The notes below the pieces were generated by a model. It ran no database searches, had not been told where the DNA came from, and was given only the letters and a program-made list of their open reading frames with translations. A stretch of 64,000 bases of DNA, from NCBI GenBank assembly GCA_016125095.1, contig WGMK01000010.1, positions 74,343 to 138,342 on the forward strand. The letters are read 5' to 3'. The translations under genes were made by a program, and so were the position numbers. This document shows positions 18,012-60,705 of the stretch, piece after piece (the first letter of the stretch is position 1; each line of letters opens with the position of its first letter). This stretch comes from Candidatus Hydrogenedens sp. (lineage in GTDB: Bacteria > Hydrogenedentota > Hydrogenedentia > Hydrogenedentales > JAEUWI01).

Positions 18012-18899
18012 GTGCGAAAGAAGCTGCTGATAGGCATTCTGGCCGCCGCGCTGGTTGTGGTCGCGGTGCCGGGCGTCTATATCGCGCAGTTGCTCTGGCG
18101 GCACGATGTGTTCAAGACACCGACCTACGATCCGGCGCCGGTGGCCCTGCCCGATCTGGGGCCCGCGCCTCGGGTGCTGTTGTTTACCAAGACCAACGGC
18201 TACCGGCATATCGAGGGCATCCCGGCTTCGATTGCGATGTTCGAGGGTCTCGCGAAGGAACTCGGCTGGTCGCTCTACCACACCGAAGACGCGGGCGTAC
18301 ACACGCCGGAAAACCTCGCGCAGTTCGATCTGCTGGTCTGGAGCAACGTATCGGGCGATGTCTTGACCGAAGACCAGCGGGCCGCGTTCCGGGGCTATAT
18401 CGAGGGCGGGGGAGAGGTGCTGGGCATTCATGCCACCGGCGGCGATCCGAGCTACGTGTGGCCGTGGTATCCCCAGGAATTCATCCGCGCGCAGTTCCGC
18501 GGGCACCCGGGTTTCCCGCAGTTCCAGCAAGCCGACGTGGTGGTGGAAGACCGCGACCATCCGGCCATGAAGCACCTGGACGAGCGCTGGAAGTTCCGGG
18601 ACGAGTTGTATAGCTTCGTCGCCTCGCCCCGCGAACGCGTGCATGTGCTCGCCTCGCTCGACGAGTCCACCTATTCTCCGAATCTGGTGGGGCCCTTCGG
18701 TAGCCTGAGCATGGGAGACCACCCGATCATCTGGTGGCACGAACTGGGCGAAGGGACGGTGTTCTACTCCGCACTCGGACACCTGCCGGAAACGTACAGC
18801 AATCCCGAGTATCGCGAAGTACTCAAACAGGCCTGCCTGTGGCTGATGCAGCGGGGAGCGGCGAAGCCCGCCCCCGAAGAGGCGCCCGCCGCGAATTAA
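18012..18899 (+). CDS. ThuA-like (type-1 glutamine-amidotransferase-like fold) domain protein with an N-terminal membrane anchor
   Basis: GTG start. VLLFTKTNGYRHIEGIPAS, LLVWSNVSGDVLTEDQR and EVLGIHATGG are ThuA family features. Confidence 0.7.
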   Translation: MRKKLLIGILAAALVVVAVPGVYIAQLLWRHDVFKTPTYDPAPVALPDLGPAPRVLLFTKTNGYRHIEGIPASIAMFEGLAKELGWSLYHTEDAGVHTPENLAQFDLLVWSNVSGDVLTEDQRAAFRGYIEGGGEVLGIHATGGDPSYVWPWYPQEFIRAQFRGHPGFPQFQQADVVVEDRDHPAMKHLDERWKFRDELYSFVASPRERVHVLASLDESTYSPNLVGPFGSLSMGDHPIIWWHELGEGTVFYSALGHLPETYSNPEYREVLKQACLWLMQRGAAKPAPEEAPAAN

Positions 18900-20254
18900 T
18901 TCCCGAGGCCGATCAGGCTCTTGAGAATGCCGGGCTTCACGCTGTCGAGCGGCACCGAGTGTTCCTTGAGGTGCTCCCAAGTGAAAATGCCCGAGCTGTG
19001 TCCGTCGCTCCAGGTGATCGCCAGCGCGTAATTGCCCAGCGGCTGCACCTGTTCGGCGTGGATATCCGCAGGAATCGACGCGTCGTCCAGCGTCTTCACG
19101 CCCGTGTATTCGTTCACGCACAGCGCGCACTGGCACGAGGCACGGAGGGCTCGGTTCTCGGCGCGGCGGCGGGTGCCGTCCGGCCAGGTGATGATGATCG
19201 CCGAGTGCGAGGTCTCCACCTTCGGCAGGGCCTCTGCGTCCAGCCGGCGCATACCTACCGCGCGGTGCAATCCGTCGGCCAGCGCGGCGAATTCAGGGAT
19301 GTTCTCGCCCGAATTCCTCCGGGCGGCCGTCGGCAGGCCCTGCAGAATCGGCAGCTCGGCCAGGGTCTCGACGCCGAAGCGTTCGCGCAGGGTGCCCGCG
19401 TGCTGTCCGAAGGGATAGTGGCGCTTCGAGCAGCCGTCGCATTCGAACCAGGCGAGGTTCTCGACCACGCCGAGCACCGGCACGTTGACCGATTCGAACA
19501 TGAGGATGCCGCGGGCCACGTCGACCAGCGACAACTGATGCGGCGTCGTGACGATGATGGCGCCGTCCAGCGCCGCCTGCTGCACCAGGGTCAGCTGGAT
19601 ATCGCCCGTGCCGGGCGGCATGTCGATGATGAGGTAGTCCAGCACGCCCCAGTCGGTCTGCTTGAGGATCTGCATCGTGTAGTTCGACACCATCGGCCCG
19701 CGCATCACGGCGGGCTTGTCACCCATCATGTAGCCCAGCGACATGGTCAGCAGGCCATCCACGGCGACCGGCTGAATGAGCTGCTGGCGCATGAGCACCT
19801 CGGGCTGGCGGGTCTCCATCAGCGTGGGCAGCGAGGGACCATAAATGTCCACGTCGAGCAGGCCGACCTTGTGTCCCTCGCGCTGAATGGCGCGCGCCAG
19901 GTGCGCCGCCACCGTCGATTTGCCCACGCCTCCCTTGCAGCTGGACACGGCAATCACGTTGGCGACGCCCTTGAGCGTATCGATGGACGGCCCCTGCGGC
20001 CGTTGCTTCGCTTGCATCGCCGTCATCGTCACCTCAACGCTGCTCACGCCCGGCAGCGCCTTGACGGCGGCCTCGGCGCTGCTGCGGAATTGTTCTTTCA
20101 CCGGACAGGCGGGCGTGGTCAGTTCGATCGTAAACTTTACCGTACCGCCCTCGATCACCAGATTCTTCACGAAGCCCAATGACACGATGTCTTTGCCGAA
20201 GTCGGGGTCGATGATTTGGCTCAGTGCGGCCAATACATCCGTCTTTTCCGCCAT
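18896..20254 (-). CDS. apbC: Fe-S cluster carrier ATPase Mrp/ApbC (NBP35 family) with an N-terminal DUF59-like region and a C-terminal DUF971-like extension
   Basis: Start taken as the internal Met (MAEKTDVLAALSQIIDPDFGKDIV) in the ORF-track frame. Walker A CKGGVGKST, the CxxC pair ECDGCSKR, and a C-terminal DUF971-like stretch of about 100 aa (WPDG...CQCALC...WSDGH). Its stop overlaps the ThuA stop on the opposite strand. Confidence 0.8.
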   Translation of the reverse strand: MAEKTDVLAALSQIIDPDFGKDIVSLGFVKNLVIEGGTVKFTIELTTPACPVKEQFRSSAEAAVKALPGVSSVEVTMTAMQAKQRPQGPSIDTLKGVANVIAVSSCKGGVGKSTVAAHLARAIQREGHKVGLLDVDIYGPSLPTLMETRQPEVLMRQQLIQPVAVDGLLTMSLGYMMGDKPAVMRGPMVSNYTMQILKQTDWGVLDYLIIDMPPGTGDIQLTLVQQAALDGAIIVTTPHQLSLVDVARGILMFESVNVPVLGVVENLAWFECDGCSKRHYPFGQHAGTLRERFGVETLAELPILQGLPTAARRNSGENIPEFAALADGLHRAVGMRRLDAEALPKVETSHSAIIITWPDGTRRRAENRALRASCQCALCVNEYTGVKTLDDASIPADIHAEQVQPLGNYALAITWSDGHSSGIFTWEHLKEHSVPLDSVKPGILKSLIGLGN

Positions 20255-20334
20255 GAGATTCTCCCTGCCTTGTGCGCGTGGTGAGGATAACACGCCGCGG
20301 ACCTGCGAATATGCCTTGGCCGGTATTGCCGGGC

Positions 20335-46928: not shown

Positions 46929-48304
46929 GGCGTCGTGACCGATTCCGTGTCCGCATCCAGCGTCCCGTTGCACACGCCGCGCAGGCCCGGCTCGAAATGA
47001 TTGCCGGTGGCGGTGATGCCGCGGATGGCGGTGGGGTTCAGGCGCTTGTCACCGTCCCAGCCTTCCATGTACACGGCGTAGCGGTAGCGCTGCGCTGCGC
47101 CGGGCTCCACATCGCGACCACCCGCCAGCACACTATTGCCGCTCAGCACGACACCCGTTACCGGGGGATTGCTCGCAAGCTGCCCATTGAGAAACGCGAT
47201 GGCATAACTGCTGGGAGCGTCCGCCTCGCGTCCGCCCCAATTCCAATACTCGTTGCCGTAGCCGTATTCCGCGACCAGGTTATTGGAGATGACGAGACCC
47301 GCGTCGCCATTCCAGGCGCGCGGTTCTCCGCCGACTTCGGCTGGGGCTGTGCCGTGCGATGCCGCGCCGGGGTTGAACAGGATGCCCCACAGGTCGGCTC
47401 CCGTGATGGTGTTCCCGTCCACGACCAAACCAAAGCAGCCATGCGTGCCCTTGATACCGATCATGCAGCGGTCAATCACGTTGCCGGATACGTTCGCGTA
47501 GTCGCAGTGCAGGTCGATGCCCTGCGCGGCATTCACAATCAGATTACCCTGGATAAGCGTATGCCGCGTCTCCTCCGGACCGGTCACCACCATGGCCGAG
47601 CCCTGGTGCCAGTTATCCACATAGCCGCGCTCGGCCACGCCCTTGGCCAGTTCGCCGGGGTGCATCGGCTCGCGTCCATCGGTCAGCGTGCCCAGCTGAT
47701 GCGCCTCCTTCGTCTCGGGTGTCGGCAGCAGCCGCTCTTCGATGATGCAATTGTTGGCGATAGTCGTCTGCACGCAGCGGTTTACCACCAACCCGGTCCC
47801 ATCGATGCATTGGAAGGCGTAGCCGTAGAGCGGAGAAGTCGTCCTATCGTCGATGCCGATGGTCTTGTAGTTGATGATCTCGCAACCGCTAATCACCGTC
47901 CGCGCGCAATGCTCGAGTCGGACGCTACCCGACTGCGAATGGTTGTCGAGCACGCGTACGTTCCGTACAATCAAGCCGGTGGCATTGTCCGCACGCAAGG
48001 CCGATTCCGCGGCGTCCTGCGCGCCCTCGGGCCGCGTAAGCGTGACACCCTCGATACGGACGTCCCGTGCGCCGTCGACCCGCACCACCGGGACCGCCGG
48101 ATTCGTCTGCACGATGGTGCCCGGGCCATAGAGCCCGCCGCCGTCCGCCGTAAATATAAGCGGCGCATCGATTTCATGGCGTCCCGGGGGAACCTCAATC
48201 AACTCGCCCTGCCGCGCCGCCACCTCGTCTACCAGCGACGCTGCTGCTGATAGGTTCCAGATGCACACCAGCGACATTGCCACGCCGAAACTCTTTCCAA
48301 TCAT
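46925..48304 (-). CDS. Secreted right-handed parallel beta-helix repeat protein (pectate-lyase-fold)
   Basis: ATG at 48304 with GAGGAGG upstream. [23 protein letters not shown] signal peptide. Repeated NN..G.D..H..N beta-helix rungs. 4-nt overlap with the macro gene. Confidence 0.7.
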
Positions 48305-48491
48305 CGGTTCCTCCTCGTGTGTCCGAAGCCCCAGTGTAACGGCTGAGCGCAGTTCTCGCACCCGTGGCCGCGCTGGAAAATCGTCGTATTCTTGCACTTA
48401 CGGGGGATCGAACGGCACAATACCCGGCTAATCCCCTTGCGGCCGCAAGGCGGCTTGCGCGTTCCCGTTACTTTCTCTGGAGGTTTACACC

Positions 48492-50252
48492 ATGGCGGTC
48501 GATGAAGCAATCCGGCAAGAACAAATCGAAATGGCGGAGGAACTGCTGTTTTCCGGCAAGCCGCTGCCCAGTTTCGCCAAGGGCTTCTATGCCGGCCTGT
48601 TCGATGCCAAGCGCGTGCTGCCCTTTCCGGAGCCGACGGCCGCGCAGGATGCGGAACTGGACGCGTATCTCGCCAAGCTGAACGCCTGGATGGATGCGAA
48701 CCTGGACCCCGACAAGATCGATCGCGACGCCGACATCGGCGACGAGGTCATCCGCGGACTGGGCGAACTCGGCGTGCTGAGCTGCACCATCGGCAAGGAG
48801 CACGGCGGCCTCGAGTTTACCCAGCACATGTACTGCAAGGTGGTGGAAGATATCGCCAAGCGCTGCGCGTCCACCGGCCTGTTTGTAAACGCGCACCAGA
48901 GCATCGGCCTCAAGGCGCTGCTGCTGTACGGCACGCCCGAGCAGCAGGCGCAGTTTTTGGTGCCCGTGGCCAAGGGCGAAATGCTCGCCGCTTTCGCGCT
49001 CACGGAAGAGAACGCGGGTTCCGACGCGGCAGGCGTTGAAACGCGCGCCGAGTACGATGCCGAGCGCGATGTCTATGTCATCAATGGCAAGAAGCAGTGG
49101 ATCACCAACGGCGGCGTGGCGGGCGTGCTTACGCTGATGGCCCGCACCATGGTGGACGGCAAGGACAAGATTTCCGCCTTTCTGGTCACGCCGGACATGC
49201 CGGGTTTCGAAGTGACCGACGTGGCCCTGGAAAAGTGCGGCATGCGCGGCACCAAGACCGCCAAGCTGAAGTTCACCAACCTCGAAGTACCCGCGAAGAA
49301 CATGCTGGGCGAGCCCGGCCGCGGCCTGCATCTGGCGCTGCATGTGCTCGATTTCGGCCGTACCACCTTCGGCGCCACCTGCACTGGCTCGGCCAAGTAC
49401 TGCGTCGAGCGCGCGCTGGCGCACGTGAAGGCGCGCCGCCAGTTCAAGCAGCCCATCGGCAATTTCCAGTCCGTGAAGGACAAGATTGCCCGCATGGCGG
49501 CCTACACCTACGCGATGGACGCCATGACCCAGCTGACTGCGGGTCTGGTGGACAAGGGCGAAGACGACTACATGCTCGAAACCGCCATGCTCAAGGTCTT
49601 CGCGAGTGACCACCAGTGGCAGATTCTTTTCGACACGATGCAGATCTTCGGCGGCCGCTCGTTCTTTACCGACGAGCCCTTCGAGCGCATGATGCGCGAC
49701 GCGCGCCTGAACACCATCGGCGAAGGATCGAACGACGTGCTGCGCACCTTCATCGGCCTTGTCGGCATGCGCGATGTGGGCATGAAGTTCAAGGACGTGG
49801 CCGACGGCATCAAGACCCCGAGCCTCGGCATTGGCAAGATGTTCGGCCTCGGCAAGGACGTGCTCCGCAAGTTCTTCGTCACGCCTGAAGTGCCCGTGCA
49901 TTCCGAGAAGCTGAAGGAAGAGGCCCAGCACCTGGGCGAGCGCGTGCGCCAGTTCGGCCTCGCCGTACAGAAGCTCATTCTTCACTACAAGGAAGACGTG
50001 CTCGACGCCCACGCCGAGCTCGACCGCATCGGCAACGCCGCGATGAACGTCTACGGCATGACGGCGGTGCTGGGCAAGCTGGACGCCAAGCTCGGCCGCG
50101 GCGAATGCAGCGCCGAAGAACTCGCCACGGGCAAGTTCTACTGCACGCTGGCCCTCCAGACCATCGACGCCAACCTCAACGCCCTCGTCGGCAGCAACAA
50201 CGACAAAGACATGATCGCCCTCGCCGACCAGCTGATGAAGCTGGAAGGCTAG
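48492..50252 (+). CDS. Long-type acyl-CoA dehydrogenase family protein
   Basis: 586 aa. ACAD N, middle and C domains (AFALTEENAGSDA, QWITNGG, IFGGRSFFTDEPFERMMRDARLNTIGEGSND). Confidence 0.85.
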   Translation: MAVDEAIRQEQIEMAEELLFSGKPLPSFAKGFYAGLFDAKRVLPFPEPTAAQDAELDAYLAKLNAWMDANLDPDKIDRDADIGDEVIRGLGELGVLSCTIGKEHGGLEFTQHMYCKVVEDIAKRCASTGLFVNAHQSIGLKALLLYGTPEQQAQFLVPVAKGEMLAAFALTEENAGSDAAGVETRAEYDAERDVYVINGKKQWITNGGVAGVLTLMARTMVDGKDKISAFLVTPDMPGFEVTDVALEKCGMRGTKTAKLKFTNLEVPAKNMLGEPGRGLHLALHVLDFGRTTFGATCTGSAKYCVERALAHVKARRQFKQPIGNFQSVKDKIARMAAYTYAMDAMTQLTAGLVDKGEDDYMLETAMLKVFASDHQWQILFDTMQIFGGRSFFTDEPFERMMRDARLNTIGEGSNDVLRTFIGLVGMRDVGMKFKDVADGIKTPSLGIGKMFGLGKDVLRKFFVTPEVPVHSEKLKEEAQHLGERVRQFGLAVQKLILHYKEDVLDAHAELDRIGNAAMNVYGMTAVLGKLDAKLGRGECSAEELATGKFYCTLALQTIDANLNALVGSNNDKDMIALADQLMKLEG

Positions 50253-50280
50253 GGGCCGGAAACAGGAATCGGAAATCACA

Positions 50281-50310
50281 GGGCGGGCAAATGCCCGCCC
50301 TTGTGTTCGC
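50281..50310 (+). terminator. GC hairpin (GGGCGGGC-aaat-GCCCGCCC) followed by TTGTGTT, between the ACAD and carboxyltransferase genes; a possible terminator or attenuator
   Basis: Perfect 8-bp stem. The T-tract is weak. It is followed by AGGAG and the 50326 ATG. Confidence 0.35.
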
Positions 50311-50325
50311 ATAGGAGATTCGGAC

Positions 50326-51966
50326 ATGGCGACCACCCCGACCGACCGCCCCCATAACCTGAAGACGTTGACCGAGGCCACGTTGGCTGAGGAGGCCGTG
50401 CTGCAACAGGGCGGCGGGCCGAAGGGGCAGGAGCGCCAGCATAAGCTGGGCCGCCTGTTTGCGCGGGAGCGCATCGATCAGCTGTTCGATAAGGATGAAT
50501 TCCGCATCGAGCTGGGGCTGTGGGCCGGGCACAACATGTATCCCGAAGTGGGGGATGTGCCGGGCGCGGGCGTCGTCGCAATGATCGGGCTCGTGCACAA
50601 CCGCCCGTGCATGGTGGTGGCGAACGACGCAACGGTGAAGGCGGGCGCGTTCTTTCCGGCCACGTGCAAGAAGGTCCTCCGTGCGCAGCGCATCGCCTTC
50701 GAGTGCAACCTGCCGCTGCTGTACCTGGTGGATTCCGCAGGCGCCTATCTCCCGATGCAGGATGAAATCTTCCCGGACGAGGACGACTTCGGCCGTATCT
50801 TCCGCAACAATTCCGTGCTCTCCGCCGCGGGCGTACCGCAATACTCCGCCATCATGGGCAACTGCATCGCAGGCGGCGCGTATCTGCCTGTGCTGAGCGA
50901 CAAGATTCTCATGACCGAAGGCAGCGGACTCTATCTCGCGGGACCGTCGCTGGTGAAGGCGGCCATCGGCCAGGATATCGACAGCGAGGCGCTCGGCGGC
51001 GCGAAGATGCACGCCGAAATCAGCGGCACCGTCGACTTCCGCGAGAAGGATGATCCCTCGTGTCTTGAACGCCTGCGCCGCCTGGTCGAATTGCTGCCTG
51101 CGGATAAGTGGAGCTGGCCGCATGGCGCCGCGAACTCCATAGAGCCCGCTCGCAATCCGAACGATCTTTACGACATCGTCGATGCTCAGGGCCGCAAGGA
51201 ATACGACGTGCACGACGTCATCGACTGCGTGGTGGATAAGGACTCGTGGGACGAGTTCCGCGCGGAACACGGCAAGACGATTGTCACGGGATTCGCGCGT
51301 ATCGGCGGACACGCCTGCGGCATCGTGGCGAATCAGCGCAAGCGCCAGACCAGCGGCAAGGGCGAAGTGCAGATTGGCGGCGTGATCTACGCCGAGGCCG
51401 CCGACAAGGCCGCCCGCTTCGTGATGGACTGCAACCAGACCGGGCTGCCCATTGTCTTCTTGCAGGACGTCGTCGGCTTCATGGTCGGGCGCGATGCCGA
51501 GCAATCGGGCATCATCCGCAGCGGCGCGAAGCTGGTGAACGCGCTGAGCAACGCCATCGTGCCGAAAATCACCATCATCACCGGGGGTAGCTTCGGCGCG
51601 GGCAACTACGCCATGTGCGGGAAGGCATACGACCCGCGCTTTATCTTCGGCTGGCCCAATGCGAAGTACGCGGTGATGGGCGCGGCCCAGGCCAGCGGCG
51701 TGATTTTCTCCATCAAGAAGCGCGCGGCCGAGCAGGAAGCCGCCGAGAAGGGCGTCGAGCTGGATCACGACGAACTCGAGCGGCTGCGCAAGCAGGTGCA
51801 CTCGGATTACGAAGAGCGCATGGACGTGCGCTGGGCGGCCTCTCGCGGCTGGGTCGATGGCATCATCGCGCCGCACACTACCCGCGAAGTGCTGATTACC
51901 GCCCTCGGCCTCACCGCGCGGCCGACGCCGCAATCGCACTACAAGACCGGCGTGCTGCAGACCTGA
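50326..51966 (+). CDS. Acyl-CoA carboxylase carboxyltransferase (beta) subunit (propionyl-/methylcrotonyl-CoA carboxylase beta type)
   Basis: Carboxyl_trans domain duplicated halves. 546 aa (GGAKMHAEISG, ITIITGGSFGAGNYAMCG). Confidence 0.85.
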   Translation: MATTPTDRPHNLKTLTEATLAEEAVLQQGGGPKGQERQHKLGRLFARERIDQLFDKDEFRIELGLWAGHNMYPEVGDVPGAGVVAMIGLVHNRPCMVVANDATVKAGAFFPATCKKVLRAQRIAFECNLPLLYLVDSAGAYLPMQDEIFPDEDDFGRIFRNNSVLSAAGVPQYSAIMGNCIAGGAYLPVLSDKILMTEGSGLYLAGPSLVKAAIGQDIDSEALGGAKMHAEISGTVDFREKDDPSCLERLRRLVELLPADKWSWPHGAANSIEPARNPNDLYDIVDAQGRKEYDVHDVIDCVVDKDSWDEFRAEHGKTIVTGFARIGGHACGIVANQRKRQTSGKGEVQIGGVIYAEAADKAARFVMDCNQTGLPIVFLQDVVGFMVGRDAEQSGIIRSGAKLVNALSNAIVPKITIITGGSFGAGNYAMCGKAYDPRFIFGWPNAKYAVMGAAQASGVIFSIKKRAAEQEAAEKGVELDHDELERLRKQVHSDYEERMDVRWAASRGWVDGIIAPHTTREVLITALGLTARPTPQSHYKTGVLQT

Positions 51967-51990
51967 TAGTTCCTTGCGGCAAGGTCGCAA

Positions 51991-52851
51991 TCAGTCGATA
52001 CGCTCCAGAAATGCCCGGACGAACCGCTCCGGCGATCCTTTGTCCATGCGGAAGTAGAGCGAGGGTTCGATGAGTTCGATCTCGATCACCTGCCATTCGC
52101 CTTCAGGACTCTCCAACAGGTCTACGCGGGCGTAGAGGCAGTCCTCCGGCACGGCGGCGAGGGCCGCATCGCCCGCGGCGCGGAGCGCTGCCGAAGGCTG
52201 CACCGGCGAGATGATGCCGCCATGCTCTTCCTGCACGCGGAAATCGCCGGGCGTCGGCTGTTTCACCACGGCATGCGAATACGCGCCGTTGAAGTAGAAG
52301 AGCGAGTATTCGCCTTGGGAAAGCAGGCTGGCGACAAAGGGCTGCGCCATCAAGTCGGCTTCGCCCATCGGCCCCCGTAGCTTCGCCTCGATTTCCGGCA
52401 CCGCGTCGCGTGTGAACCGGAAGGTGTTGTAGGCCCCGGCGCTCACCATCGGCTTGATGACCAGTTCGTCCACGCTGAAAGTGTCGAAGAGCCCGCGCAG
52501 GTTCGTTTCGCGGTCAACCACCCGTGTCGGCACGATGGGGACGCCCTGCGCTTCTAGTTCCAGCAGATACCCCTTGTGCGCATTCCACGCGGCCACCCGC
52601 CAGGGATTGAACAGCGGCACGCCCAGCGACTCGATCCGTTGCAGCGTGTCGAGAAAGTCCGGCAGGTGGAAGGTATAGTCCCAGGTTGCGCGGATGATGG
52701 CGGCGTCATAGCGGGACCAGTCCACGTCCGGCGCGTTCCACGGCACGAACTCGGCCTGCCATCCCTGTGCGGCGAAAGGCTCGAGGAGCAGATCGTCGTC
52801 CACCGTGAAATCAGTCAGGTCGTCGCAGGATAACAACACGCACCGCAGCAT
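51991..52851 (-). CDS. ATP-grasp domain protein (RimK/YheC-like), last gene of a three-gene minus-strand operon
   Basis: Internal ATG at 52851 with GAAAGG upstream. ATP-grasp C-terminal features (LIEPSLYF, YARVDLL...WQVIEIE). Confidence 0.6.
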   Translation of the reverse strand: MLRCVLLSCDDLTDFTVDDDLLLEPFAAQGWQAEFVPWNAPDVDWSRYDAAIIRATWDYTFHLPDFLDTLQRIESLGVPLFNPWRVAAWNAHKGYLLELEAQGVPIVPTRVVDRETNLRGLFDTFSVDELVIKPMVSAGAYNTFRFTRDAVPEIEAKLRGPMGEADLMAQPFVASLLSQGEYSLFYFNGAYSHAVVKQPTPGDFRVQEEHGGIISPVQPSAALRAAGDAALAAVPEDCLYARVDLLESPEGEWQVIEIELIEPSLYFRMDKGSPERFVRAFLERID

Positions 52852-52928
52852 CGAATCGGGCCTTTCCAAGTTGCCGAAAGGCCGCGATTATGCGATGCGG
52901 CAGGGGCGCGTTGCGAGATTCCCCGGCG

Positions 52929-54335
52929 CTACTCGCTGTCGTAGCCGAAGAGCCGCCGCTCAACGATGGCCGTATAGACGCTTTCCGGCACGCCGTCCTT
53001 CCAGTCGCCGTCGCCCTGCCGCAACTGGCCGAGAATCTCGCGCGAGAAGTGCCCCATAACGGACTCATCGCAGCCATCGAGCGGCTCGATAAAGCCGTTC
53101 TGCCGCAGGTGCAGGAAGAGATGGCGGAGGTGGGCCGGGAGTTCCAGATCGTCCACGGTAATCAGGCCATGCCCATTGTTGCCGCGCTTGGGATATACGT
53201 ACATCTTCGAGTGGCCGGGGAACAGCTTGCCGAAGGCCTCGAGGATGCCGCCCTCGAGCTCGCCGTAGTACTCCTCGTTGAAGATGTCGGTGATGTTGTC
53301 GACGCCCAGCACGATGCCGATCTGCCGGTTCGTGGCGCGGCTGAGGTAGGCGCGCAGCCGGAAGAAGCGGCCGTAGTTCGAGATGAGCACGAGGTAGCCC
53401 AGCTCGCCCAGCATGTCCACGCGGTCCAGGAAATCCCGCGTGTCGATATGGCCGCCGGTCATCAGCTTCGCCATGGTCAGCTCCATAAGCGTGATCATGC
53501 CGTCGGCCTTCACGCTGGGCTCGGCCGCGAAGCGTACTTCGGCGCAGCGTACCATGTCCATGTTTACCAGCGTGGGGGGGCGGAAGCTGCCGCGGCTCAC
53601 CAGGATGTTCTTGCGGTGCAGCACATCGCCCGCGCGCACCACCTCGCCCTTGGGCGTGAACAGCGCGGCATGCGTCAGCCCGGCCTTCACCAGGTGCAGC
53701 GCCAGCAGGCGGTTGTCCACCTCCTCGAAGTACGGCCCCGACAGGTGCACCATGTCGATTTCGAGCCGTTGCGCCCCAATGTTGTCGATGAACGACTCGA
53801 TCATTTTCTCGGGTTCGCGGTAGCCGAAGAAGGCGCCGTGGATGACATTCACGCCGAGCATGCCCAGCGCTTCCTGCTGCTGGCGGTTTTCATCGTCCAG
53901 CATGCGGACATGCACGATGATGTCGCTCGGCTCGGCCTTGGGATACAACTGCACCCGCACGCCGCACCAGCCGTGGCATTCCCGCTTGCTCTGGTATCCC
54001 CGCGCCGCCACGGTATCGGCATAGACAAAAAAGGTGGAGTTCTTCGGCCGGATATCGCCGATGCGTTGCACCAGCAGATTGAACTCGTGGCCGAGCATGG
54101 CCTCTAGCCGCTTGCGGCTCACGTACCGCCGGTCTTCCGATACGCCGTAAATGGCGTCGCTCACCTGCATGTCGTAGGCCGAAATCGTCTTGGCAATGCT
54201 GCCCGCCGCGCCGCCCGCCTGAAAGAAAAAGCGGGCCACTTCCTGGCCCGCTCCGATTTCCGCTATCGTGCCGTACTTGCAGGGATCGAGGTTGAGTTCC
54301 AGCGCCTTCTGTATGGTGGTCGACTGCGCCTGCAT
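52929..54335 (-). CDS. Conserved hypothetical protein (468 aa), no family recognised by eye
   Basis: Long clean ORF with balanced composition. Internal ATG at 54335 (MQAQSTTIQKALELNLDPCKYGTIAEIGAGQE...). Sits between the P-loop kinase and the ATP-grasp gene. Confidence 0.5.
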   Translation of the reverse strand: MQAQSTTIQKALELNLDPCKYGTIAEIGAGQEVARFFFQAGGAAGSIAKTISAYDMQVSDAIYGVSEDRRYVSRKRLEAMLGHEFNLLVQRIGDIRPKNSTFFVYADTVAARGYQSKRECHGWCGVRVQLYPKAEPSDIIVHVRMLDDENRQQQEALGMLGVNVIHGAFFGYREPEKMIESFIDNIGAQRLEIDMVHLSGPYFEEVDNRLLALHLVKAGLTHAALFTPKGEVVRAGDVLHRKNILVSRGSFRPPTLVNMDMVRCAEVRFAAEPSVKADGMITLMELTMAKLMTGGHIDTRDFLDRVDMLGELGYLVLISNYGRFFRLRAYLSRATNRQIGIVLGVDNITDIFNEEYYGELEGGILEAFGKLFPGHSKMYVYPKRGNNGHGLITVDDLELPAHLRHLFLHLRQNGFIEPLDGCDESVMGHFSREILGQLRQGDGDWKDGVPESVYTAIVERRLFGYDSE

Positions 54336-54349
54336 ACCGCGGCCCTGCC

Positions 54350-54883
54350 CTACTGGTGCACCGGAATCCGCGATTCCCACCGCGCCAGACGGTCGGCCAC
54401 ATGGTTCATCACCTCGTAGGCATTCATGTGCGAGGTGTCGATCAGCATGTCGGTCTTCAGCTTCAGCGTGGATTCGTGCAGCAGTTCCAGCCAGCGCTGC
54501 GTGTCGGGGTCGAAATTATGGGCGCGATCCCGCTTTTGCAGCCGGTCATCGCGCGCCTTGGTCGATGCGCAAAGCGACACCACCATCACACCGATGTCCT
54601 GTTCGACGAGGCGATCCACGAAGTGGTCCAGCCGGCCCTGCCGGGCGAAGATCCACGCCATGAAGAGATACTCGGCACCCCAGTCGCGGAAGTTCTGCGC
54701 GCAGGAGAACAGGTTCTCTTCCACGAGGTTGAGCCGGCCGGTACTGGTGCCCCCGGGATAGGTCATGGAAAGCGCATCGCCATCCAGCACGGCGGCCTTG
54801 CGGCGCGAGTAGATGCGCCCCAGCCCTTCAATCAACGTGGACTTACCGACCCCCAAGGGGCCTGTCACCAGTACGACTCGCAT
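54350..54883 (-). CDS. P-loop NTPase / small-molecule kinase-like protein (177 aa)
   Basis: ATG at 54883 with AAGAGGA upstream. MRVVLVTGPLGVGKSTLIEGL Walker A. The protein is small, like a nucleoside/metabolite kinase. Confidence 0.6.
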   Translation of the reverse strand: MRVVLVTGPLGVGKSTLIEGLGRIYSRRKAAVLDGDALSMTYPGGTSTGRLNLVEENLFSCAQNFRDWGAEYLFMAWIFARQGRLDHFVDRLVEQDIGVMVVSLCASTKARDDRLQKRDRAHNFDPDTQRWLELLHESTLKLKTDMLIDTSHMNAYEVMNHVADRLARWESRIPVHQ

Positions 54884-55101
54884 GGCCTGCTGTCCTCTTC
54901 TTGCGGGTCCGGATTGCTGCTCCATTTCCAGACCACCTTGCGCCATGTAAAGCGTAAATCGTGCCAAGTCTCGGGAATGGCAAATGTCTCACAACTTGAT
55001 GGAGTGTATGTACTTACAAATAAAATGCGGACCATTCCGAGAAATGGTCCGCATACAAGGTGGTCAGAGGGAGGTGCAATTCCCTACCGATTCGTAACTT
55101 T

Positions 55102-57576
55102 TTAGTCGAGGCAGGCCCCGTCTTCCGTATCGGTACAGGCCGTGTAGCCGCCGATGTTGTAGATCTGAATCGCCCGGAGCAGCTCCGAGAGATTGATGTT
55201 CCAGTCTTCAGGCGAGGTGTCGGCCGAGTGCGGCGCGCAGTCTTGGCCAGTCAGGTTGAGCGCGAAGCCGTCTTCCGTATCGCCTGGCAGCAGCGCGCAG
55301 CCGAAGCCGTTGGCATTGGCCAGCTGAATCACGCGCAGCAGTTCCGACAGCTCGAAGCGGAAGTCGGCGTTGGTATCCGCCGCATGCACTGCGCCTTCCA
55401 CTGCCTGGCGCAACTCGCCCACCGTAAGTCCGTTCGACGTCGTTACGTTCAGGTCGTTGTAGAGGGACTCCCCATCCAGATAGAAGGAGGTTCCCTTCTG
55501 GGCAAACAGATTGTCGAGGTAGTTGCTGCATTCGCCGAACGAAAGCTCGCGGTCCTCATTGCCGTCCAGCGAGAAGAACGCGACCAGCAGGGCGCGCGCA
55601 CCTTCCGACAAGGTAAGGAACACGTCTCCTTCGCCGCCGCCTTCGCCGCCGCCATCACCCTCGCCTTCCGTCTGGCCTTCGCCATCCTGCGCGCCTTCTA
55701 TCGCGCCCTCGCCCTCGGCCGCGCCGTCCGGCTGGCCTTCGCCATCGACGACGCCCTCGCCATCCGCCGCACCCTCGCTGGCGCCTTCACCCTCGACTGC
55801 GCCCTCCAGGGTGCCTTCGTGGGAACCTTCGCCCTCTACCGCGCCCTCGCCTTCGGAGACGCCTTCGGGGTTGCCCTCGATAGCGCCTTCACCTTCCGAG
55901 ATGCCCTCGGTCGAGCCTTCGACGATACCCTCGTGGCTGCCTTCGCCTTCGGCCACGCCTTCCGTCGAGCCTTCTACGGTACCCTCGCCGTCGGTGGCGC
56001 CTTCAATCGTTCCCTCGATAGCGCCTTCGCCATCGACCGTACCTTCGACTACACCTTCCGTCGATCCCTCGCCGTCAGCGCTTCCCTCGACCACGCCTTC
56101 CGTGTTGCCTTCACCATCTGTGCTGCCTTCGAAGGTTCCCTCGACCACACCTTCGCCTTCACCCTCGGCCGGCGTGTCTACCGTCACCACAATGTCGTTG
56201 CTAATCAGCGTCGTCGCCGCCTTGGCTCCGTTGGTGTTGCCGGATATTTCACAGCGGTAGGTGCCCGCGTCTCCCGCGGTAAACGACGGAATGCTCAGCA
56301 CCCGTCCGGTCTGGCTGCCCAGCAGCACGTTGTCCTTGAACCAGGCATAGGTAGGCACCTGGTTGCCGCCCGCGAGTACGACCTCCAGCACCAGCGGCTG
56401 CCCTTCCGCCACGGCGCCGTCTGTCGACTGCGCGGTGATGCGGAAGTTCGTGTCGAGATTCACGGTCAGATTGACGATCGAAGACGAGCGCTTCCACACG
56501 TCGTCCTCGACGGCCGCATAGAAGGCCCAGTCGTACGTGCTGTTGCCCGCAGGGATTGTTAAATAGTCGATGGTATAGGGCAACGCCGTGCTGAAGGCGC
56601 GCACAATGGTGGTCACCGCCGGGTCGACATTGCTGTCGGTGCGGCTCCACTGCGCGCGGGCGTCGCCCTTGCCCAGCGCCTGCAGGCCACCCGCGACACC
56701 GAGGTCGAAAAACTTCGAGAGGCCCGTGCTGGTCGTTCCGCCCACGGGGTCCGTGCTCACGCGCAGGGGCGGCGTAATGTGGCAGGCGTTCAGCCAGGCC
56801 TCGCGGTCCGCTGCGGCGGTGTATTCCGCACCGTTGTTCTGGCCACCGGGAATGTTGCTGTCGATATCGCCCGCCGCGCCGATATAGTTGGTGCCCGCGC
56901 TGCCGAAGCGTTGATAGTTGCTAGGGTTGAAGGAAATGCTGCTGTTCACCGTATTGACGATGCTCGCGTTCGATGTGCCGCGCGCGCCGAGTTCCAGCAG
57001 CTTCTTGAAATAGAACTCGGGGAAGTCCTGCCCGGTGCTTGAGCCGTTGTAATTGAAGTTCAGCAGCCCCGCTTCGCCGAGCGTGTAGTATCCGGCAAAG
57101 AAATTCAGTAGGCCCTGGCCCAGCGCTTCGTTGCCGTCCGCCGATACCAAGTCGATCAGATTGCACGAATAACCCGCGATCTGCATCAGCGTGCAGTTGA
57201 ACCCGGTGATCGTGAGGTCGGTATTCGCGCGGGCCTTGTTCGCCTGAAAGCCGGCCTGAATTGCGGCCACGGTGGCCGGCGTCAGCTGGTTCGTGCCGTA
57301 GGTTTGCGCGTCCGCCGTGTAATTGCCCATCAGGATCGCCGAAAGCATCGCGAATTGCTCCTGATCGGGAATGCCGTTCGCATCGCGGTCCTGGCCGTAG
57401 AGCAGGATAATTTCGTTCTGGCTCACCTCCGCGTTGGTATCGGCGATGGCCTGCATCGCGATGTCGAGCACGCGGAGCAGTCCATCGAAGTCCACGTCCA
57501 CGCCATCCGCACGGGCGGCAGTGCCGCTGAAAAAAAATGTTCCTGCTAGTAACCACGACCCCAAGAATCGACGCAT
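55102..57576 (-). CDS. Large secreted protein (824 aa): signal peptide, beta-rich N-terminal region, Ig-like domain, an (EGxxEGxxEG)n low-complexity array of about 180 aa, and a C-terminal dockerin/EF-hand-like Cys module paralogous to that of the 909..5150 protein
   Basis: ATG at 57576. MRRFLGSWLLAGTFFFSGTAARA signal peptide. Ig-like TYRCEISGNTNGA. The EGEGEG.VEGT repeat array. C-terminus ...DTNADFRFELSELLRVIQLANANGFGCALLPGDTEDGF...DWNINLSELLRAIQIYNIGGYTACTDTEDGACLD. Confidence 0.8.
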   Translation of the reverse strand: MRRFLGSWLLAGTFFFSGTAARADGVDVDFDGLLRVLDIAMQAIADTNAEVSQNEIILLYGQDRDANGIPDQEQFAMLSAILMGNYTADAQTYGTNQLTPATVAAIQAGFQANKARANTDLTITGFNCTLMQIAGYSCNLIDLVSADGNEALGQGLLNFFAGYYTLGEAGLLNFNYNGSSTGQDFPEFYFKKLLELGARGTSNASIVNTVNSSISFNPSNYQRFGSAGTNYIGAAGDIDSNIPGGQNNGAEYTAAADREAWLNACHITPPLRVSTDPVGGTTSTGLSKFFDLGVAGGLQALGKGDARAQWSRTDSNVDPAVTTIVRAFSTALPYTIDYLTIPAGNSTYDWAFYAAVEDDVWKRSSSIVNLTVNLDTNFRITAQSTDGAVAEGQPLVLEVVLAGGNQVPTYAWFKDNVLLGSQTGRVLSIPSFTAGDAGTYRCEISGNTNGAKAATTLISNDIVVTVDTPAEGEGEGVVEGTFEGSTDGEGNTEGVVEGSADGEGSTEGVVEGTVDGEGAIEGTIEGATDGEGTVEGSTEGVAEGEGSHEGIVEGSTEGISEGEGAIEGNPEGVSEGEGAVEGEGSHEGTLEGAVEGEGASEGAADGEGVVDGEGQPDGAAEGEGAIEGAQDGEGQTEGEGDGGGEGGGEGDVFLTLSEGARALLVAFFSLDGNEDRELSFGECSNYLDNLFAQKGTSFYLDGESLYNDLNVTTSNGLTVGELRQAVEGAVHAADTNADFRFELSELLRVIQLANANGFGCALLPGDTEDGFALNLTGQDCAPHSADTSPEDWNINLSELLRAIQIYNIGGYTACTDTEDGACLD
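55620..56170. repeat. Coding tandem low-complexity repeat (degenerate 9-12 nt units encoding EG/VEG/TEG)
   Basis: Repeated ggcgccttcgcc / ctcgccttc type units. It reads as PSPS repeats on the opposite strand, which are rejected ORFs. Confidence 0.8.
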
Positions 57577-57696
57577 ACGTGAACCTGCCCTGTGTTGTGC
57601 GCGCCAGACCGGCGCGCGGATTCCCCTGTGCCCGGCGCCGACCACCGCACCCCCGGCGTTCAACGCTTTTCACACTATACCACGATTCCGGTTCCC

Positions 57697-57757: not shown

Positions 57758-60514
57758 TTACTTCTTGCGCGCCTTCTTGGCGACCTTCTTCGCGGCGGCC
57801 TTGCGGGGCCAATTCAGCGCGGCGTGGGCGGCGGCCAGGCGCGCGATCGGCACGCGGAAGGGGCTGCAGCTCACGTAGTTAAAGCCCGCGCGGTGGCAGA
57901 ACATGACCGAGCTCGGCTCGCCGCCGTGCTCGCCGCAGATGCCGACCTTCAGGTCGGGGCGGGTCTTGCGGCCGCGCTCGATGCCCAGCTCGATAAGCTG
58001 GCCGATGCCTTCCTGGTCGAGCACCTGGAAGGGGTCGTTCGGCAGGATGTCGTTCGACAGGTACATCGGCAGGAAACCGCCGATGTCGTCGCGCGAGAAG
58101 CCGAAGCCCATCTGCGTCAGGTCGTTCGTGCCGAAGGAGAAGAACTCGGCCGTCTCGGCAATCTTGTCCGCCACGAGCGTCGCGCGCGGGATCTCGATCA
58201 TCGTGCCGACCATGTAGTCCAGCTTCTTGAGCTTCTTTTCCTTCATGACCTCGGCGGCCACGCGGCGCACGATGGCTTCCTGGTTCTTCAGTTCGTTCTG
58301 GTGGCCCACCAGCGGAATCATGATTTCCGGCAACACCTTCACCTTCTTGGCGGTCAGTTCAGCGGCCGCTTCGAGGATGGCGCGTGCCTGCATCTCGGTG
58401 ATTTCCGGGTAGGCGATGCCCAGGCGGCAGCCGCGGTGGCCGAGCATGGGGTTGAGTTCGTGCAGCGAATGCACGCGATCTTTCACGGTCTGCGCGGGGA
58501 TGCCCATGCTCGCCGCGAGTTCCTTGATCTGCGCGTCGTCGAGCGTCACGAACTCGTGCAGCGGCGGATCCAGCAGGCGCACCGTCACCGGCATACCGGC
58601 CATCGCCTTGAAGATGCCGAGGAAGTCCTTCTTCTGGAAGGGGAGGAGCTTCATCACGGCGGCGCGGCGGTCGGCTTCGGTCTCCGACAGAATCATCTCG
58701 CGCATGTGGATGATGCGTTCCGGCTCGAAGAACATGTGCTCGGTACGCGCCAGGCCGATGCCCTCCGCGCCGAACGCCACCGCCTGTTCGGCATCTTTCG
58801 GCGTTTCGCAGTTGGTGCGCACGTTGATCTGGCGGGTCTGGTCGGCCCAGCCCATCAGCTTCTTGTACCACTTGTTCTTGTCGGGCTGTGCCGGCAGCAC
58901 GGCCACTTGGCCGTCGAACACGTTGCCCGTGGTGCCGTTCAGCGACACCCAGTCGCCCTCGGCAACCGTCTTGCCGCCGACGGTCAGCTTCTTGCCGCGC
59001 GCGTCGATGTTCAGGGCGCCGCAGCCCACGATGCAGCACTTGCCCCAGCCGCGCGCCACGAGCGCCGCGTGCGAGGTCATGCCGCCCTTGGCCGTCAGGA
59101 TGGCCTGGGCCACGTGCATGCCGTGCACGTCTTCCGGCGAGGTCTCATTGCGGACCAGCACCACCTTCTTGCCCTGCGCGGCCCATTCTTCGGCGGCCTC
59201 GCTGGTGAACACCACCTGGCCCACGCCGCCGCCGGGACCCGCCGGCAGGCCCTTGGCCAGCACGGGAGCCGTCTTCTCGGCCGCGGGGTCGAGCATCGGG
59301 TGCAGCAGTTCGTCCAGCTGCTGCGGCTTCACGCGCAGTAGCGCCTCGGCCTGGGTAATCAGCTTCTTCTCGGCCATTTCCACCGCCATGCGGATGGCGG
59401 CCACGCCGGTGCGCTTGCCCACGCGCGTCTGCAGCATCCACAGCTCGCCATCCTCGATGGTGAACTCGATGTCCTGCATGTCGCGGTAATGCTTTTCCAG
59501 CTTCTGGCGGATCTTGTCCAGCTGCTTGTAGACCTTCGGGTTGGCTTCCTCGAGCGAAACCACGTTCTTCTGGTCGGGGGTCTTCGAAGCCTTGTTCAGC
59601 GGGCTCGGGGTGCGGGTACCCGCCACCACGTCCTCGCCCTGCGCATTCACCAGCCACTCGCCGTAGAACAGGTCTTCGCCGGTGGCCGGGTTGCGGGTGA
59701 AGGCCACGCCCGTGGCCGAGGTGTCGCCCATGTTGCCGAACACCATCGCCTGCACGTTCACCGCGGTGCCCCACTCGTGCGGGATGCCCTCAATGCGGCG
59801 GTAGGCGATGGCGCGCTTGCCGTTCCACGACTGGAACACGGCCTTGATGCCGCCCCACAGCTGCTCGCGGGCGTCGTCCGGGAAGGGCTTGCCCAAGGTC
59901 TTCTTCACGATGGCCTTGAACTCTTCGCAGAGTTCCTTCAGGTCATCGGCGGTCAGGTGCGTGTCTTCGGTGACGCCGCGCGCCTTCTTCTTCGCATCCA
60001 TCGCGTGCTCGAGCTTCTCGCGCACGGTGTCGTCGCCCGGACGCTCAACGCCAGCGGCCTTTTCCATCACCACGTCGGCGTACATCATGATCAGGCGGCG
60101 GTAGGCGTCATACGCGAAGCGCGCGTCGCCGCTCTTCTTGATCAGCCCCTCGATGGTCTTGCTGCTCAGGCCGATGTTGAGCACGGTGTCCATCATGCCC
60201 GGCATCGACTGGCGGGCGCCCGAGCGCACCGACATCAGCAGCGGGTTCTTGGGGTCGTCGAACTTCTTCCCCATGATCTTCTCGACCTTCTTCAGCGCCT
60301 TCTCCACCTCGTCGTTCACCGGCTTGGGCAGCTTGCCCTTGTTCTTGTAGTACTCGGTGCAGACTTCCGTCGTGATGGTGAAGCCCGCCGGAACCGGGAT
60401 GCCGGCGCTCGCCATGTCGGCGAGATTGGCGCCCTTGCCCCCGAGCAGGTTCTTCATGGTGGCATTGCCTTCGCCCTTGCCCCCGCCAAACGAATACACA
60501 TTCTTCTTCGCCAT
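57758..60514 (-). CDS. ppdK: Pyruvate, phosphate dikinase
   Basis: ATG at 60514 with AAGGAG upstream. MAKKNVYSFGGGKGEGNATMKNLLGGKGANLADM. The catalytic His region GGMTSHAALVARGWGKCCIVGCG. A C-terminal PEP-utilising TIM barrel. 918 aa. Confidence 0.95.
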   Translation of the reverse strand: MAKKNVYSFGGGKGEGNATMKNLLGGKGANLADMASAGIPVPAGFTITTEVCTEYYKNKGKLPKPVNDEVEKALKKVEKIMGKKFDDPKNPLLMSVRSGARQSMPGMMDTVLNIGLSSKTIEGLIKKSGDARFAYDAYRRLIMMYADVVMEKAAGVERPGDDTVREKLEHAMDAKKKARGVTEDTHLTADDLKELCEEFKAIVKKTLGKPFPDDAREQLWGGIKAVFQSWNGKRAIAYRRIEGIPHEWGTAVNVQAMVFGNMGDTSATGVAFTRNPATGEDLFYGEWLVNAQGEDVVAGTRTPSPLNKASKTPDQKNVVSLEEANPKVYKQLDKIRQKLEKHYRDMQDIEFTIEDGELWMLQTRVGKRTGVAAIRMAVEMAEKKLITQAEALLRVKPQQLDELLHPMLDPAAEKTAPVLAKGLPAGPGGGVGQVVFTSEAAEEWAAQGKKVVLVRNETSPEDVHGMHVAQAILTAKGGMTSHAALVARGWGKCCIVGCGALNIDARGKKLTVGGKTVAEGDWVSLNGTTGNVFDGQVAVLPAQPDKNKWYKKLMGWADQTRQINVRTNCETPKDAEQAVAFGAEGIGLARTEHMFFEPERIIHMREMILSETEADRRAAVMKLLPFQKKDFLGIFKAMAGMPVTVRLLDPPLHEFVTLDDAQIKELAASMGIPAQTVKDRVHSLHELNPMLGHRGCRLGIAYPEITEMQARAILEAAAELTAKKVKVLPEIMIPLVGHQNELKNQEAIVRRVAAEVMKEKKLKKLDYMVGTMIEIPRATLVADKIAETAEFFSFGTNDLTQMGFGFSRDDIGGFLPMYLSNDILPNDPFQVLDQEGIGQLIELGIERGRKTRPDLKVGICGEHGGEPSSVMFCHRAGFNYVSCSPFRVPIARLAAAHAALNWPRKAAAKKVAKKARKK

Positions 60515-60705
60515 CGAATCGTTTCTCCTTGTAGACCCGCTCGTTGCGTGTAGGTCGGATTGGATTTGCGCTCGCGCCCATCGGCCGCTCCGCAGGCGCA
60601 ATCAGCCGGCAGGCGGACACACTTCTCCCTGCTGAGGCGGCAAACGGGACAGAGTATAGTTTACCGGCACCAGACATTCAAGGATTTCACGCGGGCCTGC
60701 GCCGT

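Follow-up and report, generated by a model that had tools for sequence, protein, structure and literature searches.

Three adjacent genes of a Candidatus Hydrogenedens genome, the middle one from a widespread family with predicted PncC-like and NadD-like folds

The locus and its three genes

The sequence analysed here (the window) is a stretch of 64,000 nucleotides (nt) from Candidatus Hydrogenedens sp. (assembly GCA_016125095.1, contig WGMK01000010.1, positions 74,343 to 138,342). It carries a cluster of three co-directional genes on the minus strand, separated by gaps of 14 nt (genes 1 and 2) and 77 nt (genes 2 and 3). Gene 1 (54350..54883; ATG at 54883, stop at 54350) encodes a P-loop kinase-like protein of 177 amino acids (aa). 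Gene 2, the middle gene (52929..54335; ATG at 54335, stop at 52929), encodes a two-domain protein of 468 aa that belongs to a large uncharacterised family, and gene 3 (51991..52851; ATG at 52851, stop at 51991) a stand-alone ATP-grasp enzyme of the DcsG family with 286 aa. The original prediction read the cluster as one operon in which a kinase, an unknown enzyme and an ATP-grasp enzyme would build or tailor an amide-linked small molecule or peptide. A dedicated pathway is not what we favour, because the three genes do not stay together in related bacteria. It is likely that they are a local juxtaposition with no conserved pathway, that genes 1 and 2 form a module of Hydrogenedentota, and that gene 2 encodes a nucleotide-binding fusion of a PncC-like and a NadD-like domain.

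The open reading frames (ORFs), their strand and their spacing are as originally predicted. The chosen starts match the lengths of database homologues (177, 468 and 286 aa), including 100%-identical proteins from a Candidatus Hydrogenedens sp. metagenome-assembled genome. Judged from the homologues of each, all three ORFs are real genes under purifying selection. Purine-rich motifs resembling Shine-Dalgarno sequences are seen upstream of genes 1 and 3, the two genes for which such sites had been claimed. At its 5' boundary the cluster meets a terminator-like hairpin of the upstream gene (55025..55054, minus strand), which consists of a 13-bp stem followed by a T-run. At its 3' boundary it meets a convergent carboxyltransferase gene (50326..51966, plus strand; Pfam Carboxyl_trans, E 1.3e-139). 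Neither intergenic gap contains a predicted terminator-like site. Because of the hairpin upstream, the convergent gene downstream and the absence of a predicted terminator in the gaps, genes 1 to 3 could form one transcript at the present locus. No Rfam family was matched anywhere in 51800-55300 (E<=1), the 140-nt leader of gene 1 included. A riboswitch or leader RNA ahead of gene 1 was rejected on this result and on the predicted fold of the 177 nt upstream, where the terminator hairpin of the preceding gene dominates.

In the product of gene 1 a Walker A motif (GPLGVGKS) is accompanied by an LDGD motif and by a lid-like segment rich in Arg (RLQKRDRAHNFD). All of its Pfam matches are weak and sub-threshold, among them AAA_33 and AAA_18, both at 23.7 bits (cutoffs 27 and 29.4, respectively). 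In NCBIfam the best match, to Gar/GrdA, reaches 40.6 bits (cutoff 170), and nothing significant was found in the PDB. The Walker A motif and these sub-threshold P-loop profile matches bear out the earlier description of the protein as P-loop kinase-like. A word-based search returned 3 homologues, and a profile search of 1.84 billion representatives returned 285 at E<=1e-3, of which 8 reach E<=1e-30. The protein belongs to a tiny, fast-evolving, kinase-like clade. With Gar/GrdA and the AAA_33-type small P-loop kinases it shares the Walker A motif, a size of ~170-180 aa and weak profile similarity, but it falls far under the cutoffs, forms a separate tiny clade and has no resistance or integron context. 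Identification as a zeta toxin was also considered and rejected (Pfam 19.6 bits, sub-threshold; no antitoxin-like partner).

Gene 3 had been described as an ATP-grasp ligase of the RimK/YheC type, of which the first half stands and the second does not. The match to the RimK profile TIGR00768 (E 0.05, 12.9 bits) is far under the cutoff of 143.4 bits, and MptN gives a marginal NCBIfam match only. The NCBIfam DcsG equivalog is matched at E 2.9e-56 with 190.8 bits against a cutoff of 360, and the alignment with DcsG itself (D-cycloserine synthetase, PDB 6jil) runs end to end (residues 11-285, E 1.2e-27). The local Pfam copy gave no match to gene 3. However, PF27100 (DcsG_N) is precomputed on P0121, a protein identical to that of gene 3, and is present on 120 of the 120 homologues listed from more than 5000. 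By these sequence comparisons gene 3 is a member of the DcsG-like ATP-grasp family (PF27100) and not DcsG, because the 6jil alignment is full-length and the homologues carry PF27100, but the score lies under the equivalog cutoff. The neighbourhood is free of dcs cluster genes. Members of the family stand alone and occur widely, with Alteromonas, Paraglaciecola, Rhodothermales and Acidobacteriota among their hosts. If it works like other members, gene 3 would presumably activate a carboxylate as an acyl-phosphate and then join it to a nitrogen or oxygen nucleophile.

Conservation of gene order

The window and contigs L083/L084, L097 and L081/L082 all have a P-loop gene immediately before the middle gene, and the flanks differ each time. 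In L083/L084 the middle protein is 88% identical to that of the window and the P-loop protein 77%, with a gap of 12 nt. In L081/L082 the corresponding identities are 69% and 38%, and the gap is 54 nt. The short contig L097, the only one returned by a metagenome scan for P-loop relatives, carries the pair. Genes 1 and 2 would make up a module of two genes, observed in some Hydrogenedentota only. The check on whether all three genes are syntenic across genomes, proposed with the original prediction, found only this pair kept, on a few Hydrogenedentota contigs.

The orthologue of gene 3 in the same samples as L083/L084 sits on another contig, L085/L086. By tblastx, L085 is colinear with window positions 47054-52851 and the colinearity ends at the start of the ATP-grasp gene. 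Identities within this block are 72% for the ATP-grasp protein, 91% for the carboxyltransferase, 95% for the acyl-CoA dehydrogenase (ACAD) and 79% for a beta-helix protein. L083 is colinear with 52926-54883, beyond which it continues with an Mrp/ParA-type gene; in the window the orthologue of that gene lies at 18899-20300. The junction of genes 2 and 3 is a synteny breakpoint because the ATP-grasp gene is on a different contig in the closest relative, where it keeps the same carboxyltransferase and ACAD neighbours. The 77-nt gap (52852..52928) is a rearrangement breakpoint between closely related genomes. In L083 the Mrp/ParA-type ATPase gene (L083:8395-9795) is ~1 kb from the pair, and its 86%-identical orthologue in the window is ~33 kb away. 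This displacement suggests that closely related Hydrogenedentota genomes differ by an intrachromosomal rearrangement. A rearrangement in the window genome would have placed the module of genes 1 and 2 beside gene 3. The latter, whose neighbours in the window are the carboxyltransferase, the ACAD and the middle gene, would be an independent enzyme that goes with the carboxyltransferase/ACAD block or simply stands alone. A 260-aa gene found downstream of the middle gene in L083 was considered as a possible ATP-grasp gene and rejected, since it is not homologous.

Around ATP-grasp homologues of 74% and 65% identity, neither a P-loop gene nor a middle gene occurs within 6 kb. A broader sample consisted of 80 genome loci of the middle gene from many phyla, each with flanks of +-8 kb, and tblastn found no ATP-grasp or P-loop homologue within these flanks at any of them. 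All-against-all BLAST clustering of 940 neighbouring ORFs yielded no family shared by more than 12 of these 80 loci. The orientation of the upstream neighbour is random (38 minus, 37 plus) and the gaps around the middle gene are typical of a monocistronic gene. A Pfam census of the nearest 75 upstream and 77 downstream ORFs found no shared neighbour and no P-loop kinase; its commonest families, S49 peptidase (at 12 loci) and DapF (at 6), are both lineage-specific. Clustering and census together turned up lineage-specific neighbours only: SppA in Opitutaceae, DapF, and ruvC or ruvAB in relatives of ~60% identity.

Among relatives of ~57-63% identity (Lentisphaeraceae and others), the middle-gene homologues adjoin ruvC or ruvA-ruvB (L090:126-3724, L091:3267-3764 and the P0038 locus). 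Neighbours in other phyla are likewise housekeeping genes, such as lgt, tsaD, dnaN, dapF and sppA. Such surroundings fit a core, monocistronic middle gene.

The single modification pathway of the original prediction, which we regard as very improbable, would account for the co-directional layout with its short gaps, bounded by a terminator and a convergent gene and uninterrupted by any predicted terminator. It could also draw on the nearest characterised relative of gene 3, since DcsG is a natural-product enzyme. It does not account for the breakpoint between genes 2 and 3 relative to a genome 88-95% identical at the protein level, for the ATP-grasp homologues that occur apart from the other two genes, or for the lack of both partners at the 80 middle-gene loci. 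Nor is there a precursor peptide, a transporter or another tailoring gene nearby. As a pathway the finding is ordinary: the adjacency of three genes arose from rearrangement.

Several observations weigh against local juxtaposition combined with a two-gene module. The short gaps, with no terminator predicted inside the cluster, permit co-transcription, so a strain-specific coupling of all three genes could exist. L083 and L085 stem from the same two samples but may belong to different genomes. The pair itself is patchy: it is absent in a relative at 67% identity (L096), as it is from those at 61-63% and 57% (L095, L090 and L091 included), and three close relatives of the P-loop gene (L093, L098 and L099) are not followed by a middle gene.

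Predicted folds, conserved residues and candidate roles of the middle protein

The family of gene 2 is large. There are at least 8000 homologous clusters, and the best 120 homologues are all full-length, at least 52% identical and devoid of any Pfam domain. A scan of one genome per GTDB species confirmed at least 583 relatives at 48-55% identity. Verrucomicrobiota, Planctomycetota, Acidobacteriota, Gamma- and Betaproteobacteria, Myxococcota, Deinococcota, Armatimonadota and Nitrospirota are among the matches listed. Cultivable carriers include Shewanella algicola, Thauera aminoaromatica and Paraglaciecola marina. By sequence the family spans about ten phyla at identities of at least 48%, and it has no Pfam or NCBIfam model.

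The original prediction had found the 468-aa protein impossible to assign by eye, and sequence searches agree. Gene 2 and 33 relatives gave no Pfam or NCBIfam match even at E<=10, the CTP_transf_like and NadD models included. Searches of PADLOC and of the PDB (phmmer and profile search) returned nothing significant, the best being PPAT and MJ1010 at E 0.05-1. The protein did not resolve to a common housekeeping enzyme; no known enzyme was identified, and the protein is widely conserved. A role in anti-phage defence or as part of a mobile element was rejected, given the PADLOC result and a tblastn search of 50,697 phage and 72,556 plasmid records that produced no match. Gene 2 is a core-like, usually stand-alone chromosomal gene.

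An AlphaFold2 model built from an alignment of 33 sequences is confident, with a predicted local distance difference test score (pLDDT) of 83.7 and a predicted template modelling score (pTM) of 0.86. In this model gene 2 is a fusion of two domains. The N-terminal domain (aa 1-235; 53631-54335, minus strand) has a predicted PncC-like fold of the CinA-type alpha/beta class. The C-terminal domain (aa ~241-468; 52929-53615, minus strand) has a predicted nucleotidyltransferase fold, Rossmann-like, of the type seen in NadD and other nicotinamide mononucleotide adenylyltransferases (NMNATs). Both parent folds, PncC and NadD, bind pyridine mononucleotides. No description of PncC/NadD fusions, or of PncC-like/NadD-like proteins, was found in the literature.

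The NadD profile is colinear with the C-terminal domain, NadD positions 2-213 falling on residues 241-464. The NadD motif GGTFDPVHYGH aligns to RGSFRPxTxVN of gene 2, and the C-terminal tail of NadD (..GLY) aligns to FSRE(I/V)L...G.G.W...VPE.V...I...LFGY. Conservation was counted in an alignment of 122 family sequences from many phyla. R248, G249 and P253 are invariant, and F251 is present in 121. The equivalent of the NadD HxGH motif is T255-x-V257-N258, with T255 in 118 sequences. At position 258, where NadD has its second catalytic His, most sequences have Asn (86), followed by Thr (17) and His (11). In the profile alignment S431 (104 of 122) and R432 (85 of 122) stand opposite S-A/S of NadD, at its C-terminal phosphate-binding motif ISxTxxR, whose Thr and last Arg have no conserved counterparts. 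Compared with E. coli NadD (PDB 1k4k) and the NMNATs, gene 2 differs in reading T-x-V-N for HxGH at 13-18% identity, in lacking a match to Pfam CTP_transf_like and in being fused to a 235-aa N-terminal domain. Gene 2 was rejected as a canonical NadD/NMNAT, given the replaced (H/T)xGH motif and the lack of a family-profile match.

In Agrobacterium CinA the conserved blocks contain E30, S31, G46, S48, Y58 and K63, with S31 and K63 as the catalytic dyad (PMC5384747). In gene 2 these positions correspond to E26, I27, G42, A44, Y54 and S59, with identical spacing and a matching predicted pattern of strand, loop and helix. E26, G42 and Y54 are conserved, and at the two dyad positions the family has Ile27 (120 of 122, for S31) and Ser59 (122 of 122, for K63). 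The link to PncC rests on structure and motif spacing because profile-profile comparison was without signal. Gene 2 was likewise rejected as a canonical PncC/CinA deamidase of nicotinamide mononucleotide (NMN), since in the register inferred here the Ser/Lys dyad is replaced. It differs from the PncC/CinA C-terminal domain (PDB 6l19, 2a9s and 4ct8) in having Ile for the catalytic Ser and Ser for the Lys, in carrying an insertion of ~95 residues with invariant His and Asp, and in having no similarity at the sequence or profile level.

Conservation outside the canonical motifs is extensive, with 74 of the 468 columns conserved at >=97%. His142, Asp147 and Arg190 are found in all 122 sequences, Glu192 and Asp194 in 119, and His121 in 117, just under that threshold. 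All six lie in the ~95-residue insertion that is absent from PncC. The most conserved segment of the protein comprises residues 19-47 (EIGAGQEVARFFFQAGGAAG) and is nearly invariant over the alignment.

The two-fold assignment has several points against it. On its own the NadD profile alignment is weak (E 0.027, probability 1.8%), and hhalign of a small PncC alignment against the gene 2 family gave no signal (probability 0.1). The register of the PncC residues was taken from motif spacing and predicted secondary structure, not from residue-level structural superposition. Residues 19-47 are also the least confident part of both AlphaFold models, with pLDDT <50. In the models, low confidence in such conserved loops fits an ordering of the loops upon ligand binding or at an oligomer interface.

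Gene 2 appears to keep the phosphate- and nucleotide-binding elements of both folds, with the Ser/Lys dyad of PncC and the HxGH histidines of NadD replaced. Its most likely role would be to bind a pyridine nucleotide or a related mono- or dinucleotide. The bound nucleotide might undergo a non-canonical reaction, or the protein might act as a non-catalytic sensor or chaperone. In the Hydrogenedentota lineage the small-molecule-kinase-like gene 1 may supply or modify the ligand of gene 2.

One form of catalysis would be a module for salvage of nicotinamide adenine dinucleotide (NAD), analogous to NadR, in which the P-loop kinase phosphorylates a riboside and gene 2 deamidates and/or adenylylates the mononucleotide by non-canonical means. 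The folds of both gene 2 domains are those of enzymes that handle NMN or nicotinic acid mononucleotide, the phosphate-binding elements are conserved, and the pair is kept with gaps of 12-54 nt in three differently flanked contexts, all of which such a module would explain. We nonetheless judge it improbable, given that the catalytic residues of both parent enzymes are replaced family-wide, the P-loop protein has no AAA_28 or ribosylnicotinamide kinase (RNK) signature, the pairing is confined to a few contigs and the middle gene stands alone in 80 genomes, and no NAD riboswitch or other Rfam element occurs upstream. NadR itself joins an NMN adenylyltransferase to a P-loop ribosylnicotinamide kinase, much as a P-loop kinase stands beside an NMNAT-fold protein in genes 1 and 2. 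Here, however, the two are separate genes, paired only in few Hydrogenedentota, with gene 2 lacking HxGH. The analogy is possible but weak, because the pairing is rare and the kinase lacks the ribosylnicotinamide kinase signature. The absence of AAA_28 among the Pfam matches of gene 1, and of any specific similarity to NadR-type ribosylnicotinamide kinases, also counts against the reading favoured here.

Alternatively, gene 2 may encode a pseudoenzyme, i.e. a non-catalytic nucleotide sensor, scaffold or chaperone, to which the adjacent genes are functionally irrelevant. Loss of the canonical catalytic residues of both folds beside invariant ligand-binding loops would be expected of such a protein, as would the lack of a conserved operon partner in any sampled phylum. 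The many nearly invariant columns and the conserved insertion with its His, Asp, Arg and Glu residues look more like an active site newly gained than like one in decay, and we consider this explanation rather unlikely.

A more specific version of the nucleotide-binding reading is offered tentatively. It holds that gene 2 represents an undescribed, ancient and widespread family in which PncC-like and NadD-like folds surround a new set of conserved residues (proposed as E26, Q31, R35, Y54, D55, S59, H121, H142, D147, R190 and R248), that it carries out some reaction on, or senses, a pyridine or related nucleotide, and that it has a small-kinase partner in some Hydrogenedentota. If the true role lies in the metabolism of pyridine nucleotides or of another nucleotide cofactor, the family would be a missing, widely distributed component of bacterial NAD biology.

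Large and conserved as it is, the family has escaped curation and bears two wrong public names. 'TonB-dependent receptor' is a misannotation of a cytoplasmic alpha/beta protein; this identity was rejected on the two-domain alpha/beta model, the length of 468 aa and the lack of TonB_dep_Rec or Plug matches. 'Nicotinate-nucleotide adenylyltransferase' overstates a resemblance at the level of the fold and is not justified. Correcting the former label would clean up thousands of annotations.

Flanking genes and antisense reading frames

The regions on either side, 57758-60601 (minus strand) and 48492-51966 (plus strand), contain ordinary metabolism genes. These encode a pyruvate phosphate dikinase, an acyl-CoA dehydrogenase of the long-chain type whose C-terminal domain is of the ACAD9/ACADV kind, and the carboxyltransferase subunit of an acyl-CoA carboxylase. 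No NAD-pathway genes are present among the neighbours scanned (about 46.9-51.9 kb and 55.1-63.6 kb).

Long ORFs of 405-668 aa run antisense to the real genes at 52890-54107 (plus strand), 50176-51990 (minus strand) and 48468-50474 (minus strand). They are typical shadow ORFs of DNA with a high guanine and cytosine content and not genes. The same artefact was encountered in 14 related loci of the ORF clustering.

The gene directly upstream of the cluster (55102-57663, minus strand) terminates at the strong hairpin at 55054-55025. It encodes a putative secreted protein of 853 aa with an immunoglobulin-like domain (Pfam Ig_3). The protein contains a long acidic, Gly/Glu-rich tract of low complexity with EGEG.. 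repeats, and two copies of the motif SELLR(V/A)IQ..N..G(F/Y)..C are found at its C-terminus.

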